A DNA stretch of 64,000 bases, taken from IMG/VR virus record IMGVR_UViG_3300028602_000006, one strand, 5' to 3'. The notes under the pieces are model-generated. The model saw nothing but the letters and a program-made list of their open reading frames with translations. It ran no database searches and was not told where the DNA came from. The position numbers were made by a program, and so were the translations under genes. Origin of the DNA: a virus. Its lineage: Duplodnaviria > Heunggongvirae > Uroviricota > Caudoviricetes. Shown in pieces: positions 11,310 to 49,202 of the stretch. Positions within the stretch are counted from its first letter, which is position 1. Each line of letters starts with the position of its first letter.

Positions 11310-12185
11310 ATGAATACAGATAGCTATTTTGAAATAGGTAACTCTCATGAAGTTTGCCAAGATTTTGCAATTTCCGGCAATATTAATGAGAATATAAGTT
11401 TTGCCATTGTAACGGACGGATGCACGACGTCTCATAATCAGTGCGCCCAAGTAGATACAGGGGCCAGAATTTTAGCCTATTCCGCAAGAGAAGCCTTAAA
11501 AAAGATTTGGGCAGATAAGGATTCAACAATATTCGAAAACACGACTCAAGAAATGGTTAGTGAATTTTTACGGAACCAATCAATTGTTACAACTAGATTG
11601 ATTGAACGTCAACTTGGTCTAGATCCATTATGTGCCGACTGTACGCTTGTTGTGGCTGTTGCAGATAAATTCGGGAATGCTCATTCTTTTGTATACGGTG
11701 ACGGATCTGTTTTTGTACAATTAAAGGATGGGTCGCAACATATGATGGATGTGACATTTTTGAGTGGAGCGCCTCTTTATTTGTCCTATCAAACAGATGA
11801 ACCCAGAAAAATTGCATATATGGGTGTTTATGGTAATCTTCCAGTCCTTATTGATCGTTATATTTTGGACGGAGGAGAAATAGAAACAAAAAACTCTAAC
11901 CAGATTTTAGCATATGATTATGGTTTATATGGAGCTTGCAATTCTCAATGGAAGGACGTTGATTTTATATCTGTAACATCCGATGGCGCTAAAAGTTTCT
12001 TGAAAAATGAGGGAAATGAAACAAACACAGTCCCTCATATTAAAATAATGAACGAATTCAATGCTATCAAAAACAGAAATGGAGTTTTCATTCAAAGAAG
12101 AATGAAGACGATGGGGAAGTCTAATAAGAAATTAAATATCTCTCATTACGATGATATTTCTATATCTGCCATTTTAGTTGGATAA
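11310..12185 (+). CDS. PP2C-family Ser/Thr phosphatase-like protein
   Basis: FAIVTDGCTTSH resembles the PP2C metal-binding xxDGHGG motif. GDGSVF lies downstream. Placed between the vWA and kinase genes. Confidence 0.45.
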   Translation: MNTDSYFEIGNSHEVCQDFAISGNINENISFAIVTDGCTTSHNQCAQVDTGARILAYSAREALKKIWADKDSTIFENTTQEMVSEFLRNQSIVTTRLIERQLGLDPLCADCTLVVAVADKFGNAHSFVYGDGSVFVQLKDGSQHMMDVTFLSGAPLYLSYQTDEPRKIAYMGVYGNLPVLIDRYILDGGEIETKNSNQILAYDYGLYGACNSQWKDVDFISVTSDGAKSFLKNEGNETNTVPHIKIMNEFNAIKNRNGVFIQRRMKTMGKSNKKLNISHYDDISISAILVG

Positions 12186-12188
12186 ATC

Positions 12189-13877
12189 ATGCCAAAAATC
12201 GCATATAATATTGAGGGAATTGGAAATGTTGTCGTAACAGACAATAATTACCTTGGGGCTGGCGGCGAGGCGAATGTCTATGCGAAGAATGATCTTGCAA
12301 TAAAGATATATCACGATCCCTCTCGGATGATACCCATTCAAAAGATAGAAGAATTGCGGGAGATTAAAGACAAACGAGTCCTCGTACCAAAGCATATTGT
12401 TTATAAATCAGGAAGCTCCCCTGTAGGGTATGCAACTCCTTTCAAACCTGATACGCATCCTTTATGTAAACTCTTCACAAAGACATTTAAAGTTAAAAGT
12501 GGGATTAGCGATGACATGATAAATAATCTCGTTGTTGAAATGCAGCAAACTATTAAGAACATACATAAGGCAAATTGCTTAGTAGTTGACTTGAATGAAA
12601 TGAACGAGCTGGTTTCTCCTAAATTCGATAACATATATTTTATTGATGTCGATAGCTATGAAACCCCATCATTCAGGGCTACGGCGATAATGGAAAGCGT
12701 CAGAGATAGGCAGATTAGAAAACAGCGATGGAATGAAGGAAGCGATTGGTATTCATTTGCCATTTTATCGTTTCAGATGTGGATTGGCATACATCCTTAT
12801 AAAGGCAAACATCCCGATTATAAACCCGCTGAGTGGACAAATCGCATGGATGAAGGCGTATCTGTATTCGATCCTAAAGTTATTTTACCTAGAACTTGCT
12901 CGGATTTGTCTGTTATACCCAAAAGTCATATAGAATGGTTGCGAGATATTTTTGTCAATGGAGCTAGATGCTCTCCGCCTGATATGTCAGACAATTTACT
13001 TATAGTTGTCCCAAATTCATTTAAATTTATTACGGCTAGTAAATCTTTTGAAACAAAACTTATAGAAACTTGTTCTGAGCTAATTAATCGAGTCTTTAAC
13101 TTTATTGGGGTTAACTATTTAATAGGCAAAACTAATATACACAGGGGCAGGGCAATCGTACCTGTTAATATTGATGGGGCAGATGAAGTGTTAATGTGCG
13201 AATCGGAGGGAGTTGACCCTATAATTTGTATTCAAAAAAACGGGATAGCCAGATTTTATTGCGAGAAAGGTCAAGAGTTTGGTTCAATATCTGCAAATTC
13301 CATGATGGCTAGAAACGGCTGTATTTATACAATATATGACGGACGTTTAATGGAAAACACATTTAGCCGCATGGGGAATAAGCTTATACATTCCTGTAGG
13401 CAATCCGCTTCTGTAATGGACTTATCGACGCAAATGTTTAATGGGGTTATAATTCAAGATATATTAAACAAGAAGTATGTTACGTTACCCTATGCGAAAG
13501 GTCTCTGCGCTCATCTTCCAGTAAAAGAACTTGATGGTTATCGCATTCTAGGCGCAAAATCCGAGCGAAATGTTTGTGCTATTATGGCTGAAAAAAGTGG
13601 TAAATATTATCGCTTTGTATTATCGTTTGGCGCAACATATTCTAATTATACTGTTAGAGTTGTTGCGGATGTTCCCTATGCCGACATCAATTTAACAGTA
13701 ATGCCCAATGGAGTCGCAGTTCTTGCCTTAGAAGATTCTGTAGAAATATTTAAAGATGAAGGTGTTAAGATAATTGACAATCCCCCATTCGACGCTACAA
13801 AAAGAATATTTAATATCTCCGGGGTTATACATTATATTGATGGGAAAGAATTATATACTGCAAAAATGAAGAGTTGA
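12189..13877 (+). CDS. Ser/Thr protein kinase-like protein with large C-terminal extension
   Basis: Gly loop GAGGEANVY, AIK lysine, catalytic-loop-like HKANCLVVDLNEMN, DFG-like IDVDSYE. Confidence 0.55.
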   Translation: MPKIAYNIEGIGNVVVTDNNYLGAGGEANVYAKNDLAIKIYHDPSRMIPIQKIEELREIKDKRVLVPKHIVYKSGSSPVGYATPFKPDTHPLCKLFTKTFKVKSGISDDMINNLVVEMQQTIKNIHKANCLVVDLNEMNELVSPKFDNIYFIDVDSYETPSFRATAIMESVRDRQIRKQRWNEGSDWYSFAILSFQMWIGIHPYKGKHPDYKPAEWTNRMDEGVSVFDPKVILPRTCSDLSVIPKSHIEWLRDIFVNGARCSPPDMSDNLLIVVPNSFKFITASKSFETKLIETCSELINRVFNFIGVNYLIGKTNIHRGRAIVPVNIDGADEVLMCESEGVDPIICIQKNGIARFYCEKGQEFGSISANSMMARNGCIYTIYDGRLMENTFSRMGNKLIHSCRQSASVMDLSTQMFNGVIIQDILNKKYVTLPYAKGLCAHLPVKELDGYRILGAKSERNVCAIMAEKSGKYYRFVLSFGATYSNYTVRVVADVPYADINLTVMPNGVAVLALEDSVEIFKDEGVKIIDNPPFDATKRIFNISGVIHYIDGKELYTAKMKS

Positions 13878-13909
13878 AAATTACATAAAATAAGGGAGCA
13901 GTTAGAAAA

Positions 13910-15109
13910 ATGAACAACGAGAATAAATCCGGTTTAACCTTATTCACTGTTATGATAATGCTGGCGTTTTTATCTATAGTGGGGGTATATGCATACAACG
14001 CTATGAGGACGGACATCTATATTTCTAACAATTATAGAGAAGGAGTTGAAGCTTTTTGTCAGGCCGATGCGGGTATTTTTTATGTTAGGGGATTAATAGA
14101 GCAACAGCTTAAAGAGGATACTCTTATATTTGTGGATGGGGATAACTCAGTTTTTTATGAGCCTCCCGAAGGATTTACATTCTTGCCTATCACTAATATA
14201 CATAAGATATCTGAGGGTATATATTGCTATGAATGTACAGGAAAGAAGAATAATTCTAGCGCTACGGTTAAGGTGGTTGTGGCCAGAAAACCTCTCCTTA
14301 TGGCAGGGCTGTTGGGGGATTTAAGATTAAACATACAACCTTTGGTGAATATTTATAGCTATGATTCCATAAGTACATTTAATCCTATTCCTTCAGACAG
14401 TTCATCAGAAGCAACCATCGGTTCAAATTTTTTAATAGAAATATCTCCCGGAGTATTTATCGACGGAGAGATAGAGATTGGACAGTCACCTGATGGGATA
14501 CCTGCTGTAATTGTGGGGGATTTAGCAGCTCCAATAGTTGATTTTGGAAGATTTGAAGAAGATCCGCTCGGCGCTATTGGAGGAGAAATTGAATCACAAT
14601 TTATCGAATATATGCAACCTGTTAATAATAACAATTTATTGGTAGATCCTCCTCAGGCAGTAGTCGGTACGGAACTATTTATGAAGAAAAATACTGCAAC
14701 TCAATTTGTTACACTAGAGGCGGGAAATTATTATCTCACTGATATTCAAATCGGTCCAGACTGTGTATTAACAATTGATGACTCAAACGGTCCCGTTAAC
14801 ATTTATCTGGACGGAGAAATGTATGCAGGCCCAGGTAGCGACATAAATAGCCCATCGCCATTGTCTTTCAGTATTTTTTCTAGGGCAGAAGATCCTATTT
14901 TAGTGCAACCAAACGGGAGTTTTGACGGGTTTATATATGCGCCATTTTCAGAAGTTACTATGAAACCGGGGAATGATGGTCATGGTGTTGTATGGGGAGA
15001 TAAAGTATATTTGTATCCTCAGGGCGATTGGTATATTGATATAAATCTTTTAAAGAGATTTTTGTCGAAAGAATTATATTTTATGAGCTGGAAAGAAATT
15101 AGAAACTGA
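13910..15109 (+). CDS. PilX-like (type IV pilus minor pilin/assembly) N-terminal domain protein
   Basis: GLTLFTVMIMLAFLSIVGVYAYNAMRTDIYISNNYREGVEAFCQADAGIFY resembles the PilX_N pattern (hydrophobic helix ... AfqAAEAGl). Confidence 0.35.
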   Translation: MNNENKSGLTLFTVMIMLAFLSIVGVYAYNAMRTDIYISNNYREGVEAFCQADAGIFYVRGLIEQQLKEDTLIFVDGDNSVFYEPPEGFTFLPITNIHKISEGIYCYECTGKKNNSSATVKVVVARKPLLMAGLLGDLRLNIQPLVNIYSYDSISTFNPIPSDSSSEATIGSNFLIEISPGVFIDGEIEIGQSPDGIPAVIVGDLAAPIVDFGRFEEDPLGAIGGEIESQFIEYMQPVNNNNLLVDPPQAVVGTELFMKKNTATQFVTLEAGNYYLTDIQIGPDCVLTIDDSNGPVNIYLDGEMYAGPGSDINSPSPLSFSIFSRAEDPILVQPNGSFDGFIYAPFSEVTMKPGNDGHGVVWGDKVYLYPQGDWYIDINLLKRFLSKELYFMSWKEIRN

Positions 15110-15186: not shown

Positions 15187-17250
15187 ATGTCAATTGAACA
15201 AAAAATAAGTATATGTTTCGGGCAAATTGAGGTCGCTCCCGGTCTCCCTAGGGTCAACACTGAAAAAATGTTGAAGTATATCAAAGAAGCTAAAGCTGAA
15301 GCATCGGATCTATTGATATTCCCAGAATTATGCATTCCGGGATACCTTCTTGGAGATATGTGGGAACGTCCTGATTTTCTAGAAGATTGTGAAGAATGCG
15401 GTAAGAAAATAATTGAAGCTTCTCAAGGAATAACTATAGCCTTCGGGAATGTCAAAACAGATCCTAAAAATAAAAACGAAGACGGCAGAATCCGTAAATA
15501 TAATTGCTGTTTTATAGCATCAAACGGGCAATTGGTCACAACTGTCACAAAAACTTTACAGCCAAACTACAGGGAATTTGATGATAATCGCCACTTTTAT
15601 GACAAGCGTAAGCAATTGACTGATTCATATCTTTCAGAGCCAAGTACAAAGGTTTCATTTTCTGAATTCATTGATAAGGCCTATGAGCCATCCTTAACAA
15701 TAAATGGAATTAAGATTGGATTCTTACTCTGTGAAGACGCTTGGGATACAGATTATTCATTCTCTCCTATAGATGTACTCGCACCCAAATGCGATCTGAT
15801 AGTCAATATGAGTTGTTCTCCGTTTACCATGGGGAAGAACCAAAAAAGGAACAGGCTTTTCTCTCAAAGAGCTAAAAATAATAATGTTATGATTGCCTAT
15901 ATAAATAATGTGGGCATTCAAAATAACGGGAAAACAATTTATACTTTCGATGGGAATAGTTGTCTTTATGATATTAATGGTGCGCAGTTTGACCTTTCTG
16001 CTCCTTTTGAAGAAAGCCTTGAAGTTTTAAGCTTGGATTTAGATGCTCGTACAGGATCATATGAAGAGAGCGCCATTGGTTCGTCAAGCGATGATATTGA
16101 AGATTTGTATTCATCAATTTGTTATGGAATCGAAAAATTTCTTCAGCAGATAGGAGTTAATAAAGTAGTAATTGGTGTATCCGGCGGGATTGATTCGGCT
16201 GTTGTTGCGGCGTTGTTTTCTGAAATTCTTCCTCCGGAAAATATTTATCTTATTAACATGCCTAGCTCTTTTAATTCTCAAACCACAAAAGACTTGGCAA
16301 AAGACTTGGCTAAAAATCTGGGATGTAAATATAGTATAATTCCTATTGGATGTAGTATTGATCACACTAGAGAACAATTATTAAAAGAAGGATTTGATGT
16401 TAGTAAATTCGTTTTCGAGAACATTCAGGCAAGAGATCGTTCTTCCAGAATTCTTGCGGCCATTGCTTCTTCAGTAGGCGGGGTTTTCACTTGCAACGCC
16501 AATAAGTCTGAGGCAACCGTAGGGTATACGACTCTCTATGGGGATTTGTCCGGATTTTTGTGCCCATTAGCTGACGTATGGAAGACAGACGTGTACAAGC
16601 TTGCTGAGTATATAAATGATAGTAGTGATGAGATGATCATTCCCTATGGCATACTCGCAGTTAAGCCTTCGGCAGAATTAAACAACGATCAAAATGTCGA
16701 TGAGGGGAAGGGAGACCCTATTATTTACCCCTATCATGATTTGCTATTTAGAAGTTGGGTAGAAAAGTGGGAGAGGGCAACCCCCGCTGACATTCTACAA
16801 TGGGTCATAGATGATGATTTAGAAGGGAAATTAGGCTTTGAGGATGGGGATATAGTTGCCAAGTATTTTGGAGGAGATAAAAGAGCTTTTGTTGCCGACT
16901 TGGAAAGATGGTGGAATCTATATGACGGATTTGCTTATGCGAAAAGAATTCAGGCTCCTCCTGTTCTTGCGATCAGCCGCAGAAGTTACGGATTCGATCA
17001 CAGAGAAAGTTTAACCGCTCCATTTTATAGCCAAAAATATTACAAACTTCGTATGCAATATTTGGGAGAAGATTTGTCCATGAAAGAGGTTTATGACAAT
17101 TTAAAAACTATAAAAGAGAATGTCATTTTTGTTATGGCGAAAGAAGCTGGATTAGATATGGGAAAGTTTACAACCAAGGATTTAGCTCTTAAGGGATTCA
17201 TGTCCAAGATCTATGATTTATCCGATGAAGATATGGTTCATTGGGAGTGA
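15187..17250 (+). CDS. nadE: Glutamine-dependent NAD+ synthetase (nitrilase/CN-hydrolase domain + NAD synthase PP-loop domain)
   Basis: N-domain FPELCIPGY (Glu) and LLCEDAWD (Cys). C-domain PP-loop VIGVSGGIDSAVVAAL. 687 aa, typical of the fused form. Confidence 0.8.
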   Translation: MSIEQKISICFGQIEVAPGLPRVNTEKMLKYIKEAKAEASDLLIFPELCIPGYLLGDMWERPDFLEDCEECGKKIIEASQGITIAFGNVKTDPKNKNEDGRIRKYNCCFIASNGQLVTTVTKTLQPNYREFDDNRHFYDKRKQLTDSYLSEPSTKVSFSEFIDKAYEPSLTINGIKIGFLLCEDAWDTDYSFSPIDVLAPKCDLIVNMSCSPFTMGKNQKRNRLFSQRAKNNNVMIAYINNVGIQNNGKTIYTFDGNSCLYDINGAQFDLSAPFEESLEVLSLDLDARTGSYEESAIGSSSDDIEDLYSSICYGIEKFLQQIGVNKVVIGVSGGIDSAVVAALFSEILPPENIYLINMPSSFNSQTTKDLAKDLAKNLGCKYSIIPIGCSIDHTREQLLKEGFDVSKFVFENIQARDRSSRILAAIASSVGGVFTCNANKSEATVGYTTLYGDLSGFLCPLADVWKTDVYKLAEYINDSSDEMIIPYGILAVKPSAELNNDQNVDEGKGDPIIYPYHDLLFRSWVEKWERATPADILQWVIDDDLEGKLGFEDGDIVAKYFGGDKRAFVADLERWWNLYDGFAYAKRIQAPPVLAISRRSYGFDHRESLTAPFYSQKYYKLRMQYLGEDLSMKEVYDNLKTIKENVIFVMAKEAGLDMGKFTTKDLALKGFMSKIYDLSDEDMVHWE

Positions 17251-18857: not shown

Positions 18858-20192
18858 ATGGCATCGTTAGTTGAGAAAGTACATCTGATAAAGTCTGACC
18901 CAGTAAACAATAACAATAAGTTTTGGATTGGAGAATTATATGATGATGATTCCGTGGTTTGTAGATGGGGAAGAGTCGGAGATACTGGGCAAAGTAAATC
19001 ATTCCCCAGCGGAGGAAAGAAATTTTTAGATTCAAAAGTCCGCTCTAAAAAGAAATCAGGACGTAATGGTGAAATCGCATATCGAGAAATAGAAATTATA
19101 GACGGAGCAAGCGTTCCTGCACCCAAAACATCCTCTACAAAAACTACCAGCGGTAGCCAACTATCTCAAATCGCCAAAAAGCAAATTCAAACTGGTGGTA
19201 ATCCTGAGGCACTTAAACTCATTGATTACCTTGTTAAAGTTAACGCTCATCAAATCGCAAGTATGACGGGTGGCCAAATTACTTATAACTATGATACAGG
19301 TCTTTTCCAAACTCCGATGGGTCTTGTTTCTCAGGCTAATATTGATGAAGCGAGAGATAAAATTACAGGTATTGGTGATATTGTAGCAAAGAAAAAGTAC
19401 AATGATCCTAATCTTATGGAACTTACTAGGGATTATCTTATGCTTGTCCCTCAGGATATTGGGCGTAAAAGGCTTGAACTTGATGATTTTTGGTGCGATC
19501 TAACTGCCGTTCAGAAACAGGATGCTATTCTTGACGGGCTTCAAGCTTCTTTAACGCAAGCAGCTAAAACCCCCGTAAAGTCCGTCAAAGATAATAAGCC
19601 CGAAGAGCAAATATTTCAAACTAAGCTCGAACTCGTTTCCGATCCTAAGGCGATTAAGAAAATAAAGGACTTATACCATAAAACTCGTCAGTCTATGCAT
19701 AATTGTTATCACCTTGATGTCAAAAAAGTATATACAATTGATATTAATACGGTTCAAGATGCGTTCAAAAGAGACGGCGCTAAGATGGATAATGTTTGGG
19801 ATCTTTGGCATGGGACTAGAGCGAGTAATCTACTCTCCATTCTTAAGGGCGGATTGATTATTCCGCCGTCAAATGCATCAAATGTTACTGGGCGTATGTT
19901 CGGAAATGGGGTTTACGCTTCTGATCAGTCCACAAAGGCTCTTAACTATGCTTATGGATATTGGGGCGGGGGCAAATCAGATGACAACTGCTTTATGTTC
20001 CTTCTTAAAATGGCCATGGGTAATTATTACACTCCTAAAAGTCCGTTTTCAGCTAACTCTGCTCCCAAAGGCTATGATTCCACCTTTGCACAGGCTCATA
20101 AGAGCGGGGTATATAATAACGAAATGATTGTATATAGGACATCCCAAATAAATCTTAGGTATTTGGTGGAATTTAGTCCGAATGGTAAATAA
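18858..20192 (+). CDS. Poly(ADP-ribose) polymerase-like protein (WGR domain + PARP catalytic domain)
   Basis: N-terminal WGR (FWIGELYDD...CRWGRVGDTGQ). Catalytic H-Y-E triad context HGTRASN...GIYFA-like GNGVYASDQ...YNNEMIVY. Confidence 0.75.
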   Translation: MASLVEKVHLIKSDPVNNNNKFWIGELYDDDSVVCRWGRVGDTGQSKSFPSGGKKFLDSKVRSKKKSGRNGEIAYREIEIIDGASVPAPKTSSTKTTSGSQLSQIAKKQIQTGGNPEALKLIDYLVKVNAHQIASMTGGQITYNYDTGLFQTPMGLVSQANIDEARDKITGIGDIVAKKKYNDPNLMELTRDYLMLVPQDIGRKRLELDDFWCDLTAVQKQDAILDGLQASLTQAAKTPVKSVKDNKPEEQIFQTKLELVSDPKAIKKIKDLYHKTRQSMHNCYHLDVKKVYTIDINTVQDAFKRDGAKMDNVWDLWHGTRASNLLSILKGGLIIPPSNASNVTGRMFGNGVYASDQSTKALNYAYGYWGGGKSDDNCFMFLLKMAMGNYYTPKSPFSANSAPKGYDSTFAQAHKSGVYNNEMIVYRTSQINLRYLVEFSPNGK

Positions 20193-20456: not shown

Positions 20457-21629
20457 ATGATACCATTTTACCTATTGCTCATTATTTATTGCTTCGTAAC
20501 GATGTTCATCCATTTTAAGTTCCATACTATTACTTGGTATGAATGGCTGGGTGTATGTCTGATTGGATTTGCTGTAACTGGAGTATTTCATGCTATTGCC
20601 GTTCATGGAATGACGGCAGACAATGAAATTTGGTCAGGTCAAATTACACGAGCAGTTCATTATCCAAGGTGGATTGAAGAATATCAAGTCGCTATATATA
20701 AAACAGTAACACATACTCGTAGTGATGGCTCTACATATACAACATCAGAATTCTCCCATTATGAAACCCGGCATAGAACTCATCCTGAACATTGGCAAGC
20801 AGAAACATCTATAACCCGACCAAAGGAAATTGATAAAAAGTTCTTCAATGAGATTGTTCAGAATTTTGGAGATCTTACCACAGAAAAGCCTCATAAAAGC
20901 GGATTCGATAGCGGCGATCCAAACATCTATGTAGCCTATAACAAAACTGGTTATGTCTATCCCATTACTGATATTCGATCATTCAAGAACAAGATCAAAG
21001 CATCCCCATCTGTATTTAGCTTCTCTAAAGTGCCAGAAGGAACACCAGTTTATGAATATCCTTATAGTCATTGGCTGGTATCTGCACGATTGATTGGAAC
21101 TGCATCGACGGTGATTGACATAACTGAATTTGATCGTCTTAATAGCCGACTCGGGCCTACTAAGAGGGTCAATGTCATTATTGTTGGGTTCAACTCATTA
21201 GATTCTCAATTGGGTCAATGGCAAGAGGCAAAATGGATCGGTGGAAAGAAAAATGATCTCGTGATTTGTTATGGTGGAACGACTAATGCAAATTGGGCGT
21301 ATTGCTTTGGATGGACAGAACAAGAGATAGTAAAGCGAAATATTGAGACTATTTTCTTGAAATTTCCCGTAAATGATGATATACTATTAAAAATAGAAAA
21401 TGAGATTAGAAAGAATTATGTCATTAAAGATTGGTCAAAATTTGATTACATTAGAGTGGAACCACCAAGATGGGCATTCATGATATTGGTTATTATTTTT
21501 ATTGGTACGCAGGGCGGGTTATGGGCATTTGCTCATTATAATGATTTTACTGATGAAGATAGGCCAATTATATCAGCACGGGAAAGAGAACGATTAATGA
21601 AAAAATATGGTTATAGGAGAATGAGGTAA
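20457..21629 (+). CDS. Membrane protein (N- and C-terminal TM segments), hypothetical
   Basis: Hydrophobic N-terminus (FYLLLIIYCFVTMFI...) and C-terminal TM (FMILVIIFIGT). Confidence 0.4.
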   Translation: MIPFYLLLIIYCFVTMFIHFKFHTITWYEWLGVCLIGFAVTGVFHAIAVHGMTADNEIWSGQITRAVHYPRWIEEYQVAIYKTVTHTRSDGSTYTTSEFSHYETRHRTHPEHWQAETSITRPKEIDKKFFNEIVQNFGDLTTEKPHKSGFDSGDPNIYVAYNKTGYVYPITDIRSFKNKIKASPSVFSFSKVPEGTPVYEYPYSHWLVSARLIGTASTVIDITEFDRLNSRLGPTKRVNVIIVGFNSLDSQLGQWQEAKWIGGKKNDLVICYGGTTNANWAYCFGWTEQEIVKRNIETIFLKFPVNDDILLKIENEIRKNYVIKDWSKFDYIRVEPPRWAFMILVIIFIGTQGGLWAFAHYNDFTDEDRPIISARERERLMKKYGYRRMR

Positions 21630-27383: not shown

Positions 27384-28553
27384 ATGGAAATAAAATCTTT
27401 GTTGGTCGATGAACCTCCGTCTATTATTGCTGATTCTGTAATGGAATCAGCAATAACTTTACCTATCCAAAACGAAATCAAACGAATTGAGCGATGGGAC
27501 AACTGGCAATGGCAAATGCAAAACCGCATTAGAACAGTTTCTCAATTAAACAAGCAGTTTCCTTACCTAAATACGAGTGGCATATATGATGCATCTGTGA
27601 AATTTCCGTTTGCAATTACTCCGTATTACGCATCTTTAATTAGGAATGCCGATTTGTCAGACCCCATATTTGCAATGAGTGTTCCTCAGGCGGAAGAACT
27701 ATTGAATCCATCTTATTTGAAAGAAGACCCGCTTGAAGAAGAAAAGTACATGCCTGTTCCGGGATTAGTCCATAGATACCCAGACAGAGCGTTGTTAATC
27801 ACAACATCGTCCTGCGCCATGTATTGCCGTCATTGTACTAGGAAAAGAGTTGCGGGTAAAAGAGATACTTGCGTTAATGAATCTCAGCTTAGTAAAATGA
27901 TAGATTATTTGAGGATTCACCCAGAAATCCATGATGTAATTATATCTGGAGGAGATCCGCTAACAATGTCCACTGGTAAATTGGAATCGATAATTAAACA
28001 AGTCAGATCTGTTGAGAGCGTTGATATTATCAGAATAGGAACTAGGACTCCTGTTGTCCTCCCAATGAGAATAACATCCGTATTGGTCAATATGTTGAAG
28101 AAATATCATCCAATATATATTAACACTCATTTCAATCACCCAAATGAATTAACTCCGCAGGCTCTTGAGGCCTGTTCAAAATTAGTAAATGCAGGTATTG
28201 TTCTCGGTAATCAGTCTGTTTTATTAAAGGGTGTTAATGACGACGCTACAACAATGGAAACCCTGCTCCGTGGGTTATTAAAAGCAAGAGTAAAACCATA
28301 TTATTTATTCCAATGTGACTTAATAAGCGGTACAGAGCATTTTAGAACCCCGATATCAAAGGGAATTGAAATTATGGAGTATCTAAGGGGAAGACTAAGC
28401 GGATTGGCTATCCCATCTTATATTGTTGATCTTCCCAATGGAGGGGGTAAAATTCCAGTCCTTCCTAGCTATATTGTGGCATTTAAAGATGAATATACCT
28501 TATTCAGGAACCCAGAGGGCGATTTGATCCGCTATCCTTGCCCCATCCACTAA
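27384..28553 (+). CDS. Lysine 2,3-aminomutase family radical SAM enzyme (KamA/EpmB-like)
   Basis: CAMYCRHCTRK (CxxxCxxC) and ISGGDPLT signature. 389 aa. Confidence 0.75.
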   Translation: MEIKSLLVDEPPSIIADSVMESAITLPIQNEIKRIERWDNWQWQMQNRIRTVSQLNKQFPYLNTSGIYDASVKFPFAITPYYASLIRNADLSDPIFAMSVPQAEELLNPSYLKEDPLEEEKYMPVPGLVHRYPDRALLITTSSCAMYCRHCTRKRVAGKRDTCVNESQLSKMIDYLRIHPEIHDVIISGGDPLTMSTGKLESIIKQVRSVESVDIIRIGTRTPVVLPMRITSVLVNMLKKYHPIYINTHFNHPNELTPQALEACSKLVNAGIVLGNQSVLLKGVNDDATTMETLLRGLLKARVKPYYLFQCDLISGTEHFRTPISKGIEIMEYLRGRLSGLAIPSYIVDLPNGGGKIPVLPSYIVAFKDEYTLFRNPEGDLIRYPCPIH

Positions 28554-28609: not shown

Positions 28610-28867
28610 ATGAAGATAGAAGAAAAATTATGGCGGACTTTAATCAGGGTAGAACGATATGACAGCAAGAATATCTACGTGGTAATTCCGGGATATAACG
28701 TTAATGAAGAAATTACAATACCAAAATCAATAATTCCCGAAGATGTCTTAGTGGTTATTGAAACTGAAATTGACGAAGAAGAAATTTATCGTTTTCATGT
28801 ACAATGCAATATCGGGGCAAAAAGCAAAGAAGACTTGATTTTTGCTCCTCCTTGGGAATGCGAATGA
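28610..28867 (+). CDS. Hypothetical protein
   Basis: Stop overlaps the GNAT start (ATGA). Confidence 0.35.
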   Translation: MKIEEKLWRTLIRVERYDSKNIYVVIPGYNVNEEITIPKSIIPEDVLVVIETEIDEEEIYRFHVQCNIGAKSKEDLIFAPPWECE

Positions 28868-29304
28868 AAGACTTTGCCATAGAACACTACTCGGATCAGT
28901 GTAAGATTGACGATTTATGGGATTTCATAGAAGATAACCTATCGCTAAAAGGATTCCCAAGCCCTGCGTTCTGGATTACTAAACGGGCATTAGAACTGCG
29001 AAGAAAAAATAATGAGATTTTGCTTGCAATGATCGATAATAAAATGATAGGATGTATTGTATTAAATAGAAGCCTTATTGAAATCTTATGCATTAAAAGG
29101 AGATACAGAAAGCGTGGAATAGGTAATAAGCTAGTAAGATATGCGGAAGAATTACTTAAAAAAGACGCTAGAAGGAAATACTTAAGAGTTGATAGCTTTA
29201 AACCTTTTAAAGCTAAAAACTTTTATGATAAGATGGGGTTCGAAACATATAATCAAAGCGAATACTGCGATACATGGCACTTTAGGAGAAAACTAAATGA
29301 ATGA
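28858..29304 (+). CDS. GNAT-family N-acetyltransferase
   Basis: Acetyl-CoA motif A CIKRRYRKRGIGNKLVRYAEELL (R/Q-x-x-G-x-G/A). Start at 28858 or 28864 assumed rather than 28804. Confidence 0.6.
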   Translation: MRMKDFAIEHYSDQCKIDDLWDFIEDNLSLKGFPSPAFWITKRALELRRKNNEILLAMIDNKMIGCIVLNRSLIEILCIKRRYRKRGIGNKLVRYAEELLKKDARRKYLRVDSFKPFKAKNFYDKMGFETYNQSEYCDTWHFRRKLNE

Positions 29305-29640: not shown

Positions 29641-30165
29641 TTGGGTAATACTTATAATTTTGACATGAATATTTTTGCTACAGATAAATGTCCGGTAGAG
29701 TCTGCGAAGGCTCTTCCGAATATTTTGGTTAATAAAATGATTGTAGAATCCGCTCAATTGCTTAGCACTGCTCACTATGTATTGGATAAAAACATGAAGG
29801 GATACAAAGCCACTCATATAAATCATCCATGCGCTAAATGGTGTAGGGAATCGAAAGGCAATTATGATTGGCTATTCAATCATTTCGATGCTCTCTGCGA
29901 CGAATATGAGGCTCGAAATGGTAAAACTCATAAATCGAGCGAGCTAAAAGATATATTGTCTGTATGCCCATCTTCCATAGCACAAAAAGGCGTTACAGAA
30001 TTTGCGAAAGCAATGCCTGACACTTTTAAGGAGAAAGGCTCTGCAATAGATTGTTATATTGCTTACTTAATATCAAAATTTGAAGGATGGGAAACTAGAA
30101 CGGATAAAAGGAAAATAACGCCAAGCTGGGGATGTCGCAACGCTCCTAAGTGGCTCAGGAGGTAA
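29641..30165 (+). CDS. Hypothetical protein
   Basis: No motif recognised. Confidence 0.35.
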   Translation: MGNTYNFDMNIFATDKCPVESAKALPNILVNKMIVESAQLLSTAHYVLDKNMKGYKATHINHPCAKWCRESKGNYDWLFNHFDALCDEYEARNGKTHKSSELKDILSVCPSSIAQKGVTEFAKAMPDTFKEKGSAIDCYIAYLISKFEGWETRTDKRKITPSWGCRNAPKWLRR

Positions 30166-30166
30166 C

Positions 30167-30907
30167 ATGGCAACTTTTTGGTTTATTAGACATGGGGAAT
30201 CTACAGCGCAGGCCAAGCCCGATGTAATAGGTGGTAGATCTCCGGACGCCGAAATAACCACCGTAGGTGCTTCGCAAGCTAGGGCGTTGGGATACTGCTT
30301 GGGGAAGGATAAAACACTTATTGGTGGATTTGATGACCTATGGAGATCAACGCTTATTCGAGCCAAGCAAACTTGTGATCTTATGATGGCAGAGATGGGA
30401 AGTTCATGCGAGCGCCCCATGAATACCCCGTCACCAATAGTAGATTCACGTCTAATTGAACTTGATCAAGGTAAATGGCAAGGGGAAGATAGAAAAAGTG
30501 TATATACTCCGCATATGATCCAACTGATAGAATCGAATACGTTGCATTTTTGCGCTCCGGGAGGAGAATCACAATTTCAAGTAACAGAGAGAATGCTTTC
30601 TTGGTTATATGATGCTTTACGCTTGGCTAGAACCAATCGAACTTTAAGAGAATCAATAATGCCATCGTTACGCAGTTTAAATGAATCTGATTACAATATA
30701 GCAGTCGTAGGACATGGATATGCGATTAGATGTTTATTGTGCAATCTATTTGATATACCAAACCGACAGGCCTTTCATATTAAGATCGATAACTGCTCAA
30801 TTACGAAAGTAAGAATATGGAGTGACGATTTCGACCATTTGGAAAATAATCTAAAATGTAATTTGGATTGCCTAAATTTTGTGTACCCTGATGTTAAATA
30901 TGCTTGA
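30167..30907 (+). CDS. Histidine phosphatase (phosphoglycerate mutase-like superfamily)
   Basis: N-terminal RHGE motif FWFIRHGESTAQ. Second His context VVGHGYAIR. Confidence 0.6.
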   Translation: MATFWFIRHGESTAQAKPDVIGGRSPDAEITTVGASQARALGYCLGKDKTLIGGFDDLWRSTLIRAKQTCDLMMAEMGSSCERPMNTPSPIVDSRLIELDQGKWQGEDRKSVYTPHMIQLIESNTLHFCAPGGESQFQVTERMLSWLYDALRLARTNRTLRESIMPSLRSLNESDYNIAVVGHGYAIRCLLCNLFDIPNRQAFHIKIDNCSITKVRIWSDDFDHLENNLKCNLDCLNFVYPDVKYA

Positions 30908-31583: not shown

Positions 31584-32366
31584 ATGAGTAATTCAATAGA
31601 TCAGGTAATTCGGGATGTAATTGATAAATTTGTGTCGGACGGTTTCATGTTTACCGCTTTCGATGTAACTCGTACCGTCAGGGAAGAAGTTGGGAAGAGC
31701 ACCTCTGTTTCTCATAATGATGTTAAAGTAATTATTCAGAATGCTTTTAATAATGGTGAGCTGGGCCAGTATGTACGTGATTTGATTAACGTAGGAACTA
31801 AAGTAGAGCCTTTTGTCTATTATCATCCATATAGCGATATAGTAAATTATGATCCCAAATGGATTCTAAATGATCCTAAACAGGACAATATGAAGGCCGA
31901 TTTATCCAAAGTGCCGTCAACTCCTGTAAACCCTGTTACTCCGTCCACTTCTGGCGGTTATCAGCCTCCAATACTTGATCTTGATGAAGACGATACTACT
32001 CCTGTTTCTGCGGCACCATCATCCACAGCAGGATCGCTTGCCATTTCAAATGCCATTCAACCCAAAAATAATCTCGGCAAGAACCAGCACCGATTGACGA
32101 GAGAAGGGCGTTTGCAAATTCCTATAAACATTGTTCGAGAGGCTGGATTTCAGGTCAACCAGAATACTTCTGTTATTAATGACAATGGAAAATTAACTAT
32201 TATGGGACAAGCAATCCCCGCAGTGAATTCAGAAATTGTCAGGGTTAATAAAGATGGCCGCATTAGAATATGCCACTCCATCTTAAAGTCAATCACTAGT
32301 AATCCCAAGAATGAAGTGTTTAAAGTTGAACGAAATAACGGAGAAATTATTATTGAAACTGTTTAA
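31584..32366 (+). CDS. Hypothetical protein with two C-terminal AbrB/SpoVT-like swapped-hairpin motifs
   Basis: GRLQIPINIVREAGF and DGRIRICHSILKSI resemble AbrB/MazE-type motifs. Low-complexity Pro/Ser/Thr linker in the middle. Confidence 0.35.
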   Translation: MSNSIDQVIRDVIDKFVSDGFMFTAFDVTRTVREEVGKSTSVSHNDVKVIIQNAFNNGELGQYVRDLINVGTKVEPFVYYHPYSDIVNYDPKWILNDPKQDNMKADLSKVPSTPVNPVTPSTSGGYQPPILDLDEDDTTPVSAAPSSTAGSLAISNAIQPKNNLGKNQHRLTREGRLQIPINIVREAGFQVNQNTSVINDNGKLTIMGQAIPAVNSEIVRVNKDGRIRICHSILKSITSNPKNEVFKVERNNGEIIIETV

Positions 32367-32384: not shown

Positions 32385-32433
32385 CGAAAAAGTCCCTTGG
32401 AGAATTGTATAATGATCCAAGGGACTTTTTTCA
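32385..32433. terminator. Bidirectional rho-independent terminator
   Basis: AAAAAGTCCCTTGG-loop-CCAAGGGACTTTTTTC. Perfect 11-bp stem with an A-run and a T-run. Confidence 0.7.
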
Positions 32434-32455: not shown

Positions 32456-33028
32456 ATGAATGAAACAAACAGAGATATTTTGAAAAACCATTTTAGTCGT
32501 ATTGATTTTGACCCTAGGTTTAAATCAGATAACATTATTTATTGGTTTGACGGAACAGAATACTCATTCTTGAGCAATTTTCATATGCACCCCATAAAAT
32601 ATAATGGGAAAGTTTATGCATCAACGGAACACGCCTTTCAAGCCGCAAAAACCCTCGATGATATGTGGAAAGAAGCTATCCGTATTACAAAAACTCCCGG
32701 AGAAGCTAAGAGAAAGGGAGGTTTATGCCCCTTGAGACCCGATTGGGAGGAAGTAAAAAATTCAGTCATGGCCGAAGTATTGGAAATAAAGTTTCAAGGC
32801 CCTTATCTACAAGACGCATTACTTAACACCTATCCGAATTATCTTGTTGAAGGTACGCTATGGCATGATAACTGGTGGGGGATTTGCCTATTGAAAGATT
32901 GCAAGAAATGTGAAGATAAGAAGGCGTTAAACATGTTAGGAATTCTTTTAATGGAATTGAGAGAAAAAATACTAACAAGACGATTACAGGAAGAGGTTGA
33001 TCTAGTTAGGGGCATTGAAGGTAATTAA
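32456..33028 (+). CDS. NADAR (YbiA-like, DUF1768) domain protein
   Basis: YWFDGTEYSFLSNFHMHPI...ASTEHAFQAAKT...WHDNWWG are hallmark NADAR blocks. Confidence 0.7.
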   Translation: MNETNRDILKNHFSRIDFDPRFKSDNIIYWFDGTEYSFLSNFHMHPIKYNGKVYASTEHAFQAAKTLDDMWKEAIRITKTPGEAKRKGGLCPLRPDWEEVKNSVMAEVLEIKFQGPYLQDALLNTYPNYLVEGTLWHDNWWGICLLKDCKKCEDKKALNMLGILLMELREKILTRRLQEEVDLVRGIEGN

Positions 33029-38425: not shown

Positions 38426-39682
38426 ATGTCAAAAAAGATCAAGTTTTTCAAAATAAATAACGTTCAAGTAGTGCATATACCTTCCGAAAGCAATATATCG
38501 GCATTCGGAGTCCAAGTTGTAGCGGGAGCAAGATATGAAAACTTCTCCAACGCAGGTGTTGCTCATTTTGCAGAGCATATGTTTTTCAAAGGGACAGGGC
38601 TATATGATTGGAAACAGCAAGATCGATTATTCGCAAAAGCTGGCGCATCTCAGAACGCTTACACAGGTAATGATCTTGTTATGTACCATGCAACATTCCC
38701 AGAGATAAATAAAGACAAAGTTATACATCTTATAATGGACATGTTCTTTAACGCTACATTCCCCGAAGATGAAATGGAAAAAGAACGTCAAGTAATAATG
38801 GAGGAGAAACGAAGACTTTTAGATGATGCGGATGGTTTCTTTTACGACTCAATCGGAGAGAACCTTTTAGAATGGCAAATAGGTCATTCAACCATAGGAA
38901 CATTTGAAACCATAAAATCATTAAAGAGGAAAGATATTATTGAATTTCTTAACTCAAGATGCGGTATCGAAACCATAACAATTATTTATGTTGGCAAGGA
39001 AAGCAATGATCTCAATAAAATAATTGAAGACAATATTCCTGCCAATCATCCGTATCTCAGCAACGGGAAAACTATTTTGTATGGGCAGAAGTTGTGGAAT
39101 AGATCGTCGGTAGATAACGCAGATAAAATAAAATTAACTGTCCATCGAAATGATATAACTCAAGCTCAGCTAAACATGTCGATTGCAGGACTTCCATTTA
39201 ATTCTAAACACCGGTTTGCAGAAAAGATTTTGCTTCGGGGTCTTGGAGGAGGGATGTACTCAAAATTATTTTCACGTATTCGCCAAGAACTAGGATTATG
39301 TTATAGCGTTGGGTTTTCTTCTTATGATCTAGCTCTCCCTGAATATCAGATGGTCTTTTTGTATGGCGGAACCGCTCCAGAAAATATTCCTCAGTTTATG
39401 GAAGAATCGGAAAAAGTAATCGACACCGTAATTAGAGATGGGATGGAAGAAGAGATATTTGAATGCGCAAAAGCTGATCTTTTAGCATCCACTCTTCGTT
39501 CAACAGAAACATCAATGGGCAAACTAGAGTATTACAATTCCAGAGCGGCTTTTGGAGAATGTAAACCGATTGATGGTATTGTTCACAATATACAAAATAT
39601 AACGATTGATGAATGCAATGAAGTTGCCAATATTTTGTTTAGCGGTAATCGGAATTGGTCGGTCATGATCCCATTGGAGTAA
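38426..39682 (+). CDS. M16-family (insulinase/pitrilysin-like) zinc peptidase
   Basis: Inverted zinc motif HxxEH in GVAHFAEHMFFKGT. Downstream EEKRRLLDD (Glu ligand region). Confidence 0.7.
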   Translation: MSKKIKFFKINNVQVVHIPSESNISAFGVQVVAGARYENFSNAGVAHFAEHMFFKGTGLYDWKQQDRLFAKAGASQNAYTGNDLVMYHATFPEINKDKVIHLIMDMFFNATFPEDEMEKERQVIMEEKRRLLDDADGFFYDSIGENLLEWQIGHSTIGTFETIKSLKRKDIIEFLNSRCGIETITIIYVGKESNDLNKIIEDNIPANHPYLSNGKTILYGQKLWNRSSVDNADKIKLTVHRNDITQAQLNMSIAGLPFNSKHRFAEKILLRGLGGGMYSKLFSRIRQELGLCYSVGFSSYDLALPEYQMVFLYGGTAPENIPQFMEESEKVIDTVIRDGMEEEIFECAKADLLASTLRSTETSMGKLEYYNSRAAFGECKPIDGIVHNIQNITIDECNEVANILFSGNRNWSVMIPLE

Positions 39683-43330: not shown

Positions 43331-43792
43331 ATGAAAAAGTGGTTTAAAAATATATTCTTTAGTTTGTTCCCATGTAATGAAACCTGTCTGTCTAAATATA
43401 GATGGTATAGAAAATGGCATGGTGGTGTATGGAACTTATGGCTTACTGATTTTTGCGGACGAATATGGGTTCACTATGGTTCCGTCTATGTCCCTCAATC
43501 ATCTAAGCTAATAAAAATAGAAAATTATAATAACCACAATAATATTGAGATAGACCCTCTTAAAAATGAGTTAATGGGAATAGTATCAGCACAGATAGGT
43601 GTAAGTAAAAACAATATAGATACTACCTCCGATTTAATAGATATTGGAGGAGATTCTCTAGATTATATTAGTATCATAATGCATGTGGAGGAGGAATTTA
43701 ACGTAGAGATCCCGGACGATAAATTGTCATCTTTAAAGTCTATAGACGATATGTACGATTATCTCATTAGTAAAGGTGTAAAGATTTCCTAA
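43331..43792 (+). CDS. Carrier-protein (ACP/PCP-like) domain protein with Trp-rich N-terminal extension
   Basis: C-terminal LIDIGGDSLDYISIIMHVEEEFNVEIPD matches the phosphopantetheine attachment motif (GxDSL). Confidence 0.55.
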   Translation: MKKWFKNIFFSLFPCNETCLSKYRWYRKWHGGVWNLWLTDFCGRIWVHYGSVYVPQSSKLIKIENYNNHNNIEIDPLKNELMGIVSAQIGVSKNNIDTTSDLIDIGGDSLDYISIIMHVEEEFNVEIPDDKLSSLKSIDDMYDYLISKGVKIS

Positions 43793-47501: not shown

Positions 47502-48731
47502 CTACCCAGACACTAAAGATGTCTGGGTTTCGTGACTCGCAGGCTCGTCTAACGACAACGCCTCCTCACGTTTTTGTTTTGATTCCGACTGTATTCCACA
47601 ACCAGAATTGTAAATCATTAATCCTTGACTGAGGGCTTCGCCTGCAAGTCTCAGCCCTTGCTCCAATATATTTTTTGAAGCATTGATGTCTCTATCTAGT
47701 TTAGCACCACAAACAGGACAAACCCATTTTCTATCTTTCAATGTCAAATCCTGATTAACAAACTTACACTTGTTACAGGTTTTGCTTGAAGGGAAGAACT
47801 TATCTATTTGAATTAGGTTTCGTTCATTCCATTCCGATTTATACTTCAGTTGTCTTAGGAATTCGCTCCAAGAACAATCTGAAATACTTTTTGCTAGGTT
47901 ATGGTTTTTCATCATATTTGCAACAGATAAGTCCTCAACACAGATCGTTTGATTCTCACGAACTATTTGAGTTGTTATGTTATGGATATGATTTAGCCTA
48001 CTGTTTGTGATTTTCTCATGAACTCTAGCAACTTTGATTCGTTGTCTATTCCTACTACTTGATCCTTTTTGTTTTTTACTGAGTTGTTTCTGCTCATAAG
48101 AAAGTTTTTTAGCATACTTATTAGTAGTTTTTATGTTCTCATAGATTTTGCCATCAGAACATATTGCTAAATCTTTAATTCCTAAATCAACTCCTACTTG
48201 ATTTTTGTTCTTTTTATATGGAGCGTGTTCGGTTTCACAGGTAATAGAAACAAAATACTTACCTGATGGATTTTTGGAAATGGTTGAAAAGAGTATTGTT
48301 CCTTCAAGTGGTCTATCCTCTTTTACCTTGATGGGTTGTTTGAATTTAGGTATCTCTAGTTTCCCATTCTCATACTTAGTTGATTGAGGAATACGAAATG
48401 ATTGTTTGTCTTTCTTGGATTTGAATCGTGGGAACTTACCTTGTTTTGAAAAGAATCGGTTGTAAGCTACTTCTAAGTCTCTTAATGAAGCTTGAACTGA
48501 CTGAGAGTTAGTTTCTTTAAGCCAACTATATTCGTCTTGTTTCTTTAGCTTAGTGAGAGAGGATGCATTGTCATAATAGTTTAAAGAAGTGTTGTTTTCA
48601 AGATAGGCGTTTTTTCGTTCATTAAGAAAATGGTTCCATACAAATCTTTTAGCCCCGAAGTGTTTAGCCAATAGGACTTCTTGATCCTTAGTTGGGTATA
48701 TTCGATATTTAAATGACTTCTTTATTTTCAT
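47502..48731 (-). CDS. tnpB: TnpB (IS200/IS605-family OrfB, RuvC-like plus zinc finger)
   Basis: C-terminal CNKCKFVNQD...WVCPVCGAKLDRDINASKNI. The 3' end overlaps the perfect hairpin CCCAGACA-CTAAAGA-TGTCTGGG (47505-47527). No adjacent tnpA. Confidence 0.75.
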   Translation of the reverse strand: MKIKKSFKYRIYPTKDQEVLLAKHFGAKRFVWNHFLNERKNAYLENNTSLNYYDNASSLTKLKKQDEYSWLKETNSQSVQASLRDLEVAYNRFFSKQGKFPRFKSKKDKQSFRIPQSTKYENGKLEIPKFKQPIKVKEDRPLEGTILFSTISKNPSGKYFVSITCETEHAPYKKNKNQVGVDLGIKDLAICSDGKIYENIKTTNKYAKKLSYEQKQLSKKQKGSSSRNRQRIKVARVHEKITNSRLNHIHNITTQIVRENQTICVEDLSVANMMKNHNLAKSISDCSWSEFLRQLKYKSEWNERNLIQIDKFFPSSKTCNKCKFVNQDLTLKDRKWVCPVCGAKLDRDINASKNILEQGLRLAGEALSQGLMIYNSGCGIQSESKQKREEALSLDEPASHETQTSLVSG

Positions 48732-48734
48732 GTG

Positions 48735-49202
48735 TTATTTATAATTTTTATCCAAAATAGATACATTTTTACCACTAAATACGCAACATGTTAGTATCCC
48801 GCTTTCTAATATCTTTACACCATCATATTTATGAATATCTTGAATGACATTGTTTATAACCCAACTTGTGCTAACATCATCTATATCTGGTCTAGATAGC
48901 AATTGCGTTTCGACATTAGAATCGTTAAATTTTATCCCGATGTCAGAAAATAGGAATTCAATGTCTCCGTCATCTATATTTATTGTATCATCCATATCAT
49001 ACGCTGTTAAATCTAAGTAGTTAGAGGCGGATAATCTCACGGTATATAGGACGTTTGCCTTTTTGCCTTCTGTAGACCAACTAATATAGTCAGATGCCAT
49101 ATTTTTATCACTAGTAAACCAACTGTAATCATTAAATTGATCAAAATCTTTTACTGATCCATGATACCATAACTCGGCAGATGCTATTTTATATATTCTC
49201 AT
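48735..49202 (-). CDS. Hypothetical protein directly upstream of the solo tnpB
   Basis: Same strand as tnpB, 3-nt gap. No HuH motif, so not TnpA. Confidence 0.4.
   Translation of the reverse strand: MRIYKIASAELWYHGSVKDFDQFNDYSWFTSDKNMASDYISWSTEGKKANVLYTVRLSASNYLDLTAYDMDDTINIDDGDIEFLFSDIGIKFNDSNVETQLLSRPDIDDVSTSWVINNVIQDIHKYDGVKILESGILTCCVFSGKNVSILDKNYK

Follow-up and report, generated by a model that had tools for sequence, protein, structure and literature searches.

What is the role of a NADAR-domain protein that is encoded by an uncultured phage and has no conserved gene partner? This question is raised by a gene at positions 32456..33028 (+ strand) of a 64,000-nucleotide stretch of DNA, hereafter the window, from IMG/VR virus record IMGVR_UViG_3300028602_000006 (Duplodnaviria; Heunggongvirae; Uroviricota; Caudoviricetes). 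The window makes up the initial 64 kb of contig k141_2398814 (182,571 bp), of which 71 kb were inspected. Overall, the evidence favours a stand-alone phage NADAR of the YbiA-type (Glu) branch, predicted to be an ADP-ribose-binding N-glycosidase, which, at a rough probability of 0.5, would be expressed early and would hydrolyse base-linked ADP-ribose on the nucleic acid of the phage. That this activity would serve counter-defence of the anti-DarT type is a proposal with even odds at best.

The open reading frame (ORF) is uninterrupted from ATG to TAA and comprises 190 codons, specifying a protein of 190 aa and 22.3 kDa with a pI of 6.2; an identical protein is called on the contig in ENA ERZ27250894. 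An initial annotation of this DNA had assigned the gene to the NADAR family from two sequence blocks, and both are found: FLSNFH at aa 38-43 (32567..32584, +), in which S40, N41, and F42 are (near-)invariant among homologues, and EHAFQAAK at aa 58-65 (32627..32650, +), which includes E58 and K65. The family assignment is borne out by profile searches. Pfam PF08719 (NADAR, formerly DUF1768) matches over profile positions 7-162 of 163 with E=3.5e-23 and 83.1 bits, for a gathering score of 35.1 bits, and PHROG 1017 matches with E=6e-32. NADAR was the sole match in the family search of the protein, which returned no macrodomain or ARH family, and membership of the NADAR superfamily is virtually certain. 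The protein is additionally a marginal member of NCBIfam TIGR02464 (riboflavin biosynthesis intermediates N-glycosidase), with 84.8 bits at a cut-off of 73.7; on the same model E. coli YbiA scores 169.5 and AdfN of phage Bas33 scores 66.8, below the cut-off.

In comparison to its relative on Logan contig L018, the window NADAR is 87% identical in protein and 85% identical in DNA, with a synonymous divergence (dS) of 0.92, a nonsynonymous divergence (dN) of 0.059, and dN/dS=0.064. The gene is under strong purifying selection over its full length, N- and C-terminal extensions included. GC content is even across the window (0.33-0.38), and the gene is therefore not a compositional island.

An AlphaFold2 model built on 121 sequences (the query and 120 homologues, alignment A2) has a mean predicted local distance difference test score (pLDDT) of 95.5 and a predicted template modelling score (pTM) of 0.90. 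The modelled helices span residues 57-63, 69-76, 81-88, 97-112, 116-123, and 160-189, with flanking strands, and the model places the protein in the YbiA fold, an alpha-helical core with two small flanking beta-sheets. In Foldseek searches of the PDB the significant matches were NADARs only, among them E. coli YbiA (2B3W; E=4e-12, TM 0.69/0.77, 41% identity) and the Phytophthora nicotianae NADAR in complex with ADP-ribose (8BAU; E=3e-8, TM 0.65). The match to the DarT1-linked Geobacter NADAR (8BAT) was marginal (E=0.3, TM ~0.4). Additionally, 67 viral structures in BFVD match the model at E<=0.001.

The ADP-ribose contacts of the P. nicotianae enzyme, as listed by Schuller et al. (PMC11543638), were mapped by a HMMER alignment of the window protein to 8BAU, with an offset of +2 in chain numbering. 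Eight of the nine contacts are kept. The distal ribose would be contacted by E58 (E43 in P. nicotianae) and by E132 (E125), the acidic residue of the last strand, the proximal ribose by D96 (D86), and the pyrophosphate by K65 (K50), W97 (W89), K101 (R93, thus Lys for Arg), D138 (D130), and W141 (W133). E58, K65, E132, and D138 are invariant in 121/121 aligned sequences, and D96, W97, K101, and W141 are kept in at least 90% of them. The sole exception is the pyrophosphate-contacting R79, which is replaced by G89 (32720..32722, +); of the 121 aligned sequences, 93 have Arg here, 12 have Lys, and 4 have Gly. The loss might be offset by an unusual Lys at position 87.

The invariance of E58, E132, and D138, together with the low dN/dS, fits a working enzyme, and the window NADAR is quite probably catalytically active. 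These same residues bear on the notion of a non-catalytic ADP-ribose binder, a decoy or inhibitor that would block a host defence effector. Such a protein might be envisaged because G89 could alter binding at the pyrophosphate contact, and the discussion section of PMC11825919 refers to a non-enzymatic phage NADAR-type protein in connection with Retron-Eco1 (its ref. 37); however, given the complete conservation of the acidic catalytic residues, this notion is extremely improbable.

The residue at the last-strand acidic position separates the branches of the superfamily, with Glu in the YbiA family, Asp in DarG1/BC4488, and His in T4 gp30.3 (PMC11125620, PMC11543638). The window NADAR carries Glu at this family-defining position (E132, 32849..32851, +), within an LVEGT segment in which its counterparts are E125 of 8BAU and the Glu of LVEH in YbiA, and thus belongs to the YbiA family sensu de Souza & Aravind. 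In pairwise BLASTP comparisons it shares 42.9% identity with AdfN of Bas33 (phage HildyBeyeler; locus tag bas33_0070, QXV80081.1; 154 aa aligned, 100 bits), 41.4% with E. coli YbiA (152 aa aligned, 90.5 bits), and 49% with its counterpart in gut phage Phass-1, and there is no BLASTP match to T4 gp30.3 (AdfN-T4). Judged by these alignments, it is equidistant from a proven counter-defence enzyme (AdfN-Bas32/33) and from housekeeping YbiA. Because the two identities are nearly equal and the TIGR02464 cut-off is passed, sequence cannot settle the physiological substrate.

Every NADAR family assayed removes guanine-linked ADP-ribose (G-ADPr) from DNA and RNA in vitro (PMC11125620, PMC12945103), and YbiA-type enzymes also remove cytidine-linked ADP-ribose (C-ADPr) (PMC12945103). 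Two general statements of the initial annotation hold for the type 1 systems: reversal by NADARs of the guanine ADP-ribosylation made by DarT is confirmed for DarT1 (PMC11543638), and the countering of DarTG by phage NADARs is confirmed for DarTG1 (PMC11825919). In particular, the NADARs of Bas32 and Bas33 are identical and alone neutralise DarT1, rescuing RB69, T5, and Bas25 on DarTG1 hosts (Johannesman et al., PMC11825919). For the window gene, a comparable course of events may be proposed. Host polymerase would transcribe it from an extended -10 promoter within an early-type block of small same-strand genes, and the product would hydrolyse the N-glycosidic bond between ADP-ribose and the nucleobase (guanine N2, possibly cytosine) on phage DNA or RNA. 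Free ADP-ribose would be released and a replicable template restored, so that any DarT1-like or pierisin-like host ADP-ribosyltransferases would be neutralised in the manner of the 43%-identical AdfN-Bas32.

Several observations weigh against this proposal. The suggestion of an anti-DarT role gains some support from the identity to AdfN-Bas32/33, but YbiA is just as similar, and YbiA, like T4 gp30.3, hydrolyses G-ADPr in vitro and yet does not relieve the toxicity of DarT1 in uninfected cells (PMC11125620). Similarly, the window NADAR passes the TIGR02464 cut-off, whereas AdfN-Bas33 does not, and the Arg at the pyrophosphate contact is Gly. The protein is acidic to neutral, neither of its extensions is basic, and the basic N-terminal DNA-binding module of the DarG1 type, which is electropositive in DarG1 (PMC11543638), is absent. 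Finally, Iyer et al. (PMC9503650) have argued from genomic context that soluble ADP-ribose derivatives are the substrates of most phage NADARs.

If that argument applied here, the window NADAR would cleave N-glycosidic bonds in soluble, low-molecular-weight ADP-ribose derivatives, such as NAD-derived immune signals or toxins (from host NADase or TIR/SIR2-type defences) or by-products of RNA repair, as part of an NAD+/ADP-ribose toolkit with NadE, a nicotinamidase-like protein, and the phage's poly(ADP-ribose) polymerase (PARP). NADARs do occur near NAD+ salvage genes (PMC9503650, published in 2022), and the window holds NadE, a weak nicotinamidase-like ORF, and a PARP gene, although the NAD genes are 15-24 kb from the NADAR gene and not adjacent to it. 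A His_Phos_1 phosphatase is encoded 1.5 kb upstream, one related NADAR (P0028) lies two genes from an RNA ligase, another (P0048) lies two genes before a DUF4326 gene (L030 10001-11752), and the lack of a basic DNA-binding surface extension also fits a small substrate. However, the window NADAR is not fused to a Macro, SLOG, or Nudix domain, and a soluble-signal substrate is unreported for any NADAR in the literature read; the demonstrated substrates are macromolecular G-ADPr and C-ADPr (PMC11125620, PMC11825919, PMC12945103). A soluble substrate is considered unlikely. The 214-kb contig that carries P0048 is rich in ankyrin repeats and encodes an integrase, AbiEii, and Fic, which probably makes it a mobile element of an intracellular bacterium.

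The resemblance to YbiA raises a further alternative, in which the gene is an auxiliary metabolic gene for metabolite damage control and its product acts as an N-glycosidase on reactive intermediates of the riboflavin pathway, an activity ascribed to E. coli YbiA and its plant homologues. The top PDB match in both sequence and fold is E. coli YbiA, the TIGR02464 equivalog-domain cut-off is passed, and the active site is of the Glu type. Nevertheless, the TIGR02464 score is half that of YbiA, and neither RibA, RibD, nor any other riboflavin gene was seen in the inspected 71 kb of the contig. Housekeeping YbiA-like proteins are cellular, with phage NADARs falling outside their group (Johannesman et al., PMC11825919), and Glu-bearing phage homologues such as AdfN-Bas32 act on DNA (PMC11825919). 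A riboflavin-related role is quite improbable, and the automated label "riboflavin biosynthesis intermediates N-glycosidase" is probably misleading in a phage.

The clade-specific features of the window NADAR lie at its termini and in a motif between them. An N-terminal extension of 27 residues (aa 1-27; 32456..32536, +) is defined by alignments and by the model, in which a short helix (9-15) is followed by a strand; its net charge is ~0, and it is confined to the six closest homologues (P0001-P0006, 48-87% identity). A C-terminal extension (aa 173-190; 32972..33025, +), likewise seen in the alignments and the model, prolongs the last core helix (160-189), and its RLQEEV sequence is conserved in P0001, P0002, P0004, and P0005. 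Between them lies the segment H137-D138-x2-W141-G-x-C144-x4-C149-x2-C152 (32864..32911, +), in which D138 and W141 are ADP-ribose contacts and the His and three Cys residues (His/Cys3) form a putative zinc knuckle. The four-ligand motif, H137-D-x2-W-G-x-C144-x(1 or 4)-C149-x2-C152, is complete in 65 of the 121 aligned sequences, and its members covary: where the Cys pair is missing, Gly or Asn usually stands at position 137. The motif is absent from YbiA and AdfN-Bas33. This pattern suggests a small putative structural zinc site in place of the Gly-rich loop of YbiA; neither zinc nor cysteine is mentioned in the NADAR structural literature that was searched. The probable contribution of both extensions and of the His/Cys3 knuckle is to stabilise the fold or to adjust substrate choice.

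A hint of early expression comes from the sequence upstream of the gene. An intergenic hairpin with a stem of ~16 bp, followed by a T-run, occupies 32386..32431 (+), with a predicted RNA folding energy of -25.3 kcal/mol (z=-4.9). The loop contains an extended -10-like sequence, TGTATAAT, at 32406-32413, 43 nt upstream of the NADAR start codon. In L018 and L019 the hairpin DNA is better conserved than the flanking coding sequence, and the flanking proteins are 53% identical. All seven copies of TGTATAAT in the window (7/7) are on the + strand and appear intergenic from a reading of the printed flanks, as opposed to a systematic comparison with gene calls. The hairpin is read as a predicted terminator for the gene upstream, as a predicted host-type extended -10 promoter for the NADAR gene, or as both. 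A repeated promoter/stem-loop cassette (PeSL-like) was considered and rejected, as the hairpin occurs once in the window and the other TGTATAAT sites have no stems.

The surrounding genes are nearly all small and on the + strand, as in early or hyperplastic regions. The contig is phage-like, with genes for a clamp loader, two SF2 helicases, a DNA methyltransferase, an Rnl1-type RNA ligase, DenV, and a virion-protein PHROG, and its helicase-methylase pair resembles that of T4-like cyanophages at ~29% identity. A megablast search of window positions 30-36 kb against 50,697 phage records gave no match, and thus there is no close cultured relative. Downstream, a 159-aa ORF without a Pfam, PHROG, or PADLOC match starts right at the NADAR stop codon, and none of the NADAR neighbours matches an ADP-ribosyltransferase (ART) or DarT family. 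The 260-aa gene upstream (31584-32366), whose product has no family match, also adjoins the NADAR gene in L018 (80% identity) and in L019/L020 (53% in L019). It was rejected as a conserved partner in favour of general synteny among related phages: the downstream side is different in L020, both sides are in L021, and no neighbour is shared with 12 other phage NADAR loci. Since the neighbours are conserved among close relatives only and none recurs in those 12 loci, the window NADAR is an orphan without a conserved gene partner. By eye, two AbrB/SpoVT-like GR(L/I)xIP repeats can be seen in the C-terminal half of the 260-aa protein, which may point to DNA binding. A second 190-aa ORF just past the window was also considered, and is not a NADAR.

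The initial annotation had placed the NADAR gene downstream of PARP and NAD genes and had suggested that it could be the eraser partner of the PARP. Both genes are real: a PARP1-like protein with WGR, PARP_reg, and catalytic domain matches is encoded at 18858-20192 (+), and NadE at 15187-17250. However, the PARP gene is 12.3 kb and 23 genes away from the NADAR gene, and a terminator-like hairpin stands directly upstream of the latter. The PARP aligns to the catalytic domain of PARP1/2, and its H-Y-E triad is intact (LWHGTR / GVYASD / NNEMIVY).

In a phage-encoded writer/eraser pair, the NADAR would reverse the modifications made by this PARP. The two genes are on one strand of one early-looking region, and neither PARG, macrodomain, nor ARH is among the precomputed Pfam matches for contig positions 8.8-71.4 kb; a canonical eraser may nevertheless lie in the other 111 kb of the 183-kb contig. 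The widely conserved 390-aa gene that adjoins the PARP gene shows no recognisable eraser fold. Additionally, PARP1 can modify adenine N1 in single-stranded DNA, which is an N-linkage (PMC12945103). However, for every PARP-made linkage tabulated in that work, A(N1)-ADPr included, the erasers are PARG, TARG1, MacroD, ARH3, or viral macrodomains and never NADAR, and NADARs are listed only for G- or C-linked ADP-ribose from DarT1 or pierisin-type enzymes (PMC12945103). Similarly, bacterial PARPs are accompanied by a PARG and MacroD duo (PMC8120803).

The distribution of the two families also bears on this pairing. PARP-bearing Klebsiella phage FBKp34 also has a very divergent DUF1768/NADAR gene, yet there the two genes are 41 kb apart, and PARP-bearing Cellulophaga phage phi4:1 carries a macrodomain. 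In a tblastn search of 50,697 GenBank phage records, relatives of the window NADAR were found in 409 and PARP in 16. With NADAR in ~27% of myoviruses and in 48% of medium and jumbo phages (PMC9503650), some co-occurrence with PARP is expected by chance. Thus the suggested eraser partnership is unsupported by PARP type, distance, hairpin, and distribution, and is regarded as very improbable.

A broader form of the same idea can be stated, in which the N- and C-terminally extended His/Cys3 NADARs, some without the Arg, are a distinct phage subclade whose substrate is other than DarT1-made G-ADPr, and in which the window member is the dedicated eraser of base-linked ADP-ribose written on DNA by the H-Y-E PARP of the phage. 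This combination is granted only a very slim chance; if true, it would make a self-contained viral writer/eraser pair for nucleic-acid ADP-ribosylation that uses NADAR instead of PARG or a macrodomain.

The phages with PARP homologues among the 16 records were XacN1, Xoo-sp13, CM1/RAS14, FBKp34-like phages, Cellulophaga phi4:1/phi17:2, and two megaphages. The DUF1768/NADAR gene of FBKp34 is gp012 (L024 3726-4265), and loci L024-L026 also hold PARP, DUF4326, NAMPT, Prs, NadR, PnuC, and SIR2, so that PARP and NADAR occur together in this second lineage of phages as well, surrounded by a complete set of NAD+ salvage genes. A hidden Markov model (HMM) made from the 121-sequence alignment, which covers YbiA-like NADARs only, detected no NADAR in the 20 kb on either side of the PARP gene in FBKp34 or XacN1; the same model misses the annotated gp012 and is therefore blind to divergent NADAR families. 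A scan of IMG/VR for relatives of the PARP found none. The 390-aa gene directly after the PARP gene (20457-21629) belongs to PHROG 2087, function unknown; it has >534 metagenome homologues at ~50% identity and no Pfam family. Its AlphaFold2 model (pLDDT 90) shows long beta-hairpins. As a candidate hidden eraser it was rejected, since the model has neither a PDB fold match at E<=0.001 nor a macro or PARG fold. A protein identical to its product is recorded in NCBI for a Synergistaceae bacterium metagenome-assembled genome (WC119_00130), so that the contig had been binned with that genome, which is either a hint of the host or a case of mis-binning.

Other cargo of the contig is varied. A DenV-type pyrimidine-dimer glycosylase (Pyr_excise, PHROG 624) is followed directly by the His_Phos_1 phosphatase (CobC/alpha-ribazole-phosphatase-like) at 29641-30907, and this pair, 1.5-2.8 kb upstream of the NADAR gene, gives the neighbourhood a loose glycosidase/repair flavour. 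The NadE gene encodes a glutamine-dependent NAD synthetase (CN_hydrolase and NAD_synthase, PHROG 36784), which, with the weak isochorismatase/nicotinamidase-like ORF at 8602-9411, makes a partial phage set for NAD+ synthesis or salvage. The segments 11310-15109 and 9448-10221 hold unusual phage cargo, namely a PP2C-type phosphatase, a 562-aa ORF without matches, a PilX_N/DUF7305 pilin-like protein, and a VWA-like protein. Auxiliary metabolic genes at 27384-28553, 28804-29304, 38426-39682, and 43331-43792 encode a radical-SAM protein with a lysine-aminomutase C-terminal domain, a GNAT acetyltransferase, an M16 peptidase, and an acyl-carrier-like PP-binding protein. Additionally, there are three IS200/IS605-type elements, at 47502-49202 (-), 55799-57282 (+), and contig 65.5-66.6 kb (L028 14784-15872). 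These encode TnpB/Cas12f-like TNB, and one also encodes a Y1 TnpA.

About one in four myoviruses and one in two medium and jumbo phages carry NADAR genes (PMC9503650), and the anti-DarTG1 role of phage NADARs was demonstrated in 2025 (PMC11825919). Phage NADARs, their chemistry, and this role are already known, and the window NADAR adds minor peculiarities of its subclade: the extensions, the His/Cys3 motif, and the Arg-to-Gly replacement. The window NADAR represents a Glu-type clade of uncultured phages, midway between YbiA and AdfN-Bas32, in a zone where sequence cannot yet predict in vivo specificity. The covarying His/Cys3 motif in approximately half of its 120 closest homologues, unmentioned in the structural literature searched, suggests an undescribed structural metal site. 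With PARP, NadE, and NADAR in one phage, this is also a reasonable test genome for viral NAD+/ADP-ribose biology; a specific link among the three genes was not found in the inspected parts of the contig.

Comparison with known systems places the window NADAR between several of them. The P. nicotianae NADAR (8BAU) shares its fold (TM 0.65) and the mapped contacts, but is eukaryotic, only ~25% identical, has R79 in place of G89, and bears other fold extensions. The DarG1/BC4488 antitoxins (E. coli C7; Geobacter/Trichlorobacter lovleyi 8BAT) belong to the same superfamily and share the proposed chemistry of guanine de-ADP-ribosylation. However, their catalytic residue is Asp, they have a basic beta-beta-alpha N-terminal extension, DarT1 adjoins them, and their fold match to the window model is marginal. 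The window NADAR is not of this type, with Glu in place of Asp, an N-terminal extension of near-zero charge and other secondary structure, and no adjacent DarT. T4 gp30.3 (AdfN-T4) is likewise an orphan phage NADAR, used against DarTG1, but has His for Glu, consists of the core domain only, and needs a T-even co-factor for full activity (PMC11825919). In the YbiA-YarT system of Chondromyces crocatus, a YbiA-type NADAR acts as the antidote to an ADP-ribosyltransferase (PMC11125620); there the ART gene is directly adjacent, whereas the neighbours of the window NADAR have no ART signature.

The two nearest systems are those between which the window NADAR is poised. E. coli K-12 YbiA (2B3W), after which the YbiA family was founded, is the top match in sequence and fold (E=1e-21, TM 0.77), has a Glu-type active site, and removes G-ADPr and C-ADPr in vitro (PMC11125620, PMC12945103). 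It differs in being a cellular gene of a LexA-controlled operon with dinG, rhlE, and ybiB (PMC11125620), assigned to riboflavin-intermediate hydrolysis and swarming, with no rescue of DarT1 toxicity in vivo (PMC11125620), and in having END..GDGGHGKG in place of the His/Cys3 insertion and neither of the extensions. AdfN-Bas32, an experimentally proven G-ADPr DNA glycohydrolase against DarTG1 (PMC11825919), is 149 aa long with no N- or C-terminal extension. Furthermore, it has Gly for His137 and neither Cys149 nor Cys152, and hence no His/Cys3 motif; it retains the Arg where the window NADAR has G89, and it scores under the TIGR02464 cut-off. Nevertheless, AdfN-Bas32/33 and the window NADAR are both stand-alone phage-encoded proteins without an adjacent DarT, both sit among early and nucleotide-metabolism genes, and both carry the last-strand Glu (within LIEGNTW and LVEGTLW, respectively).

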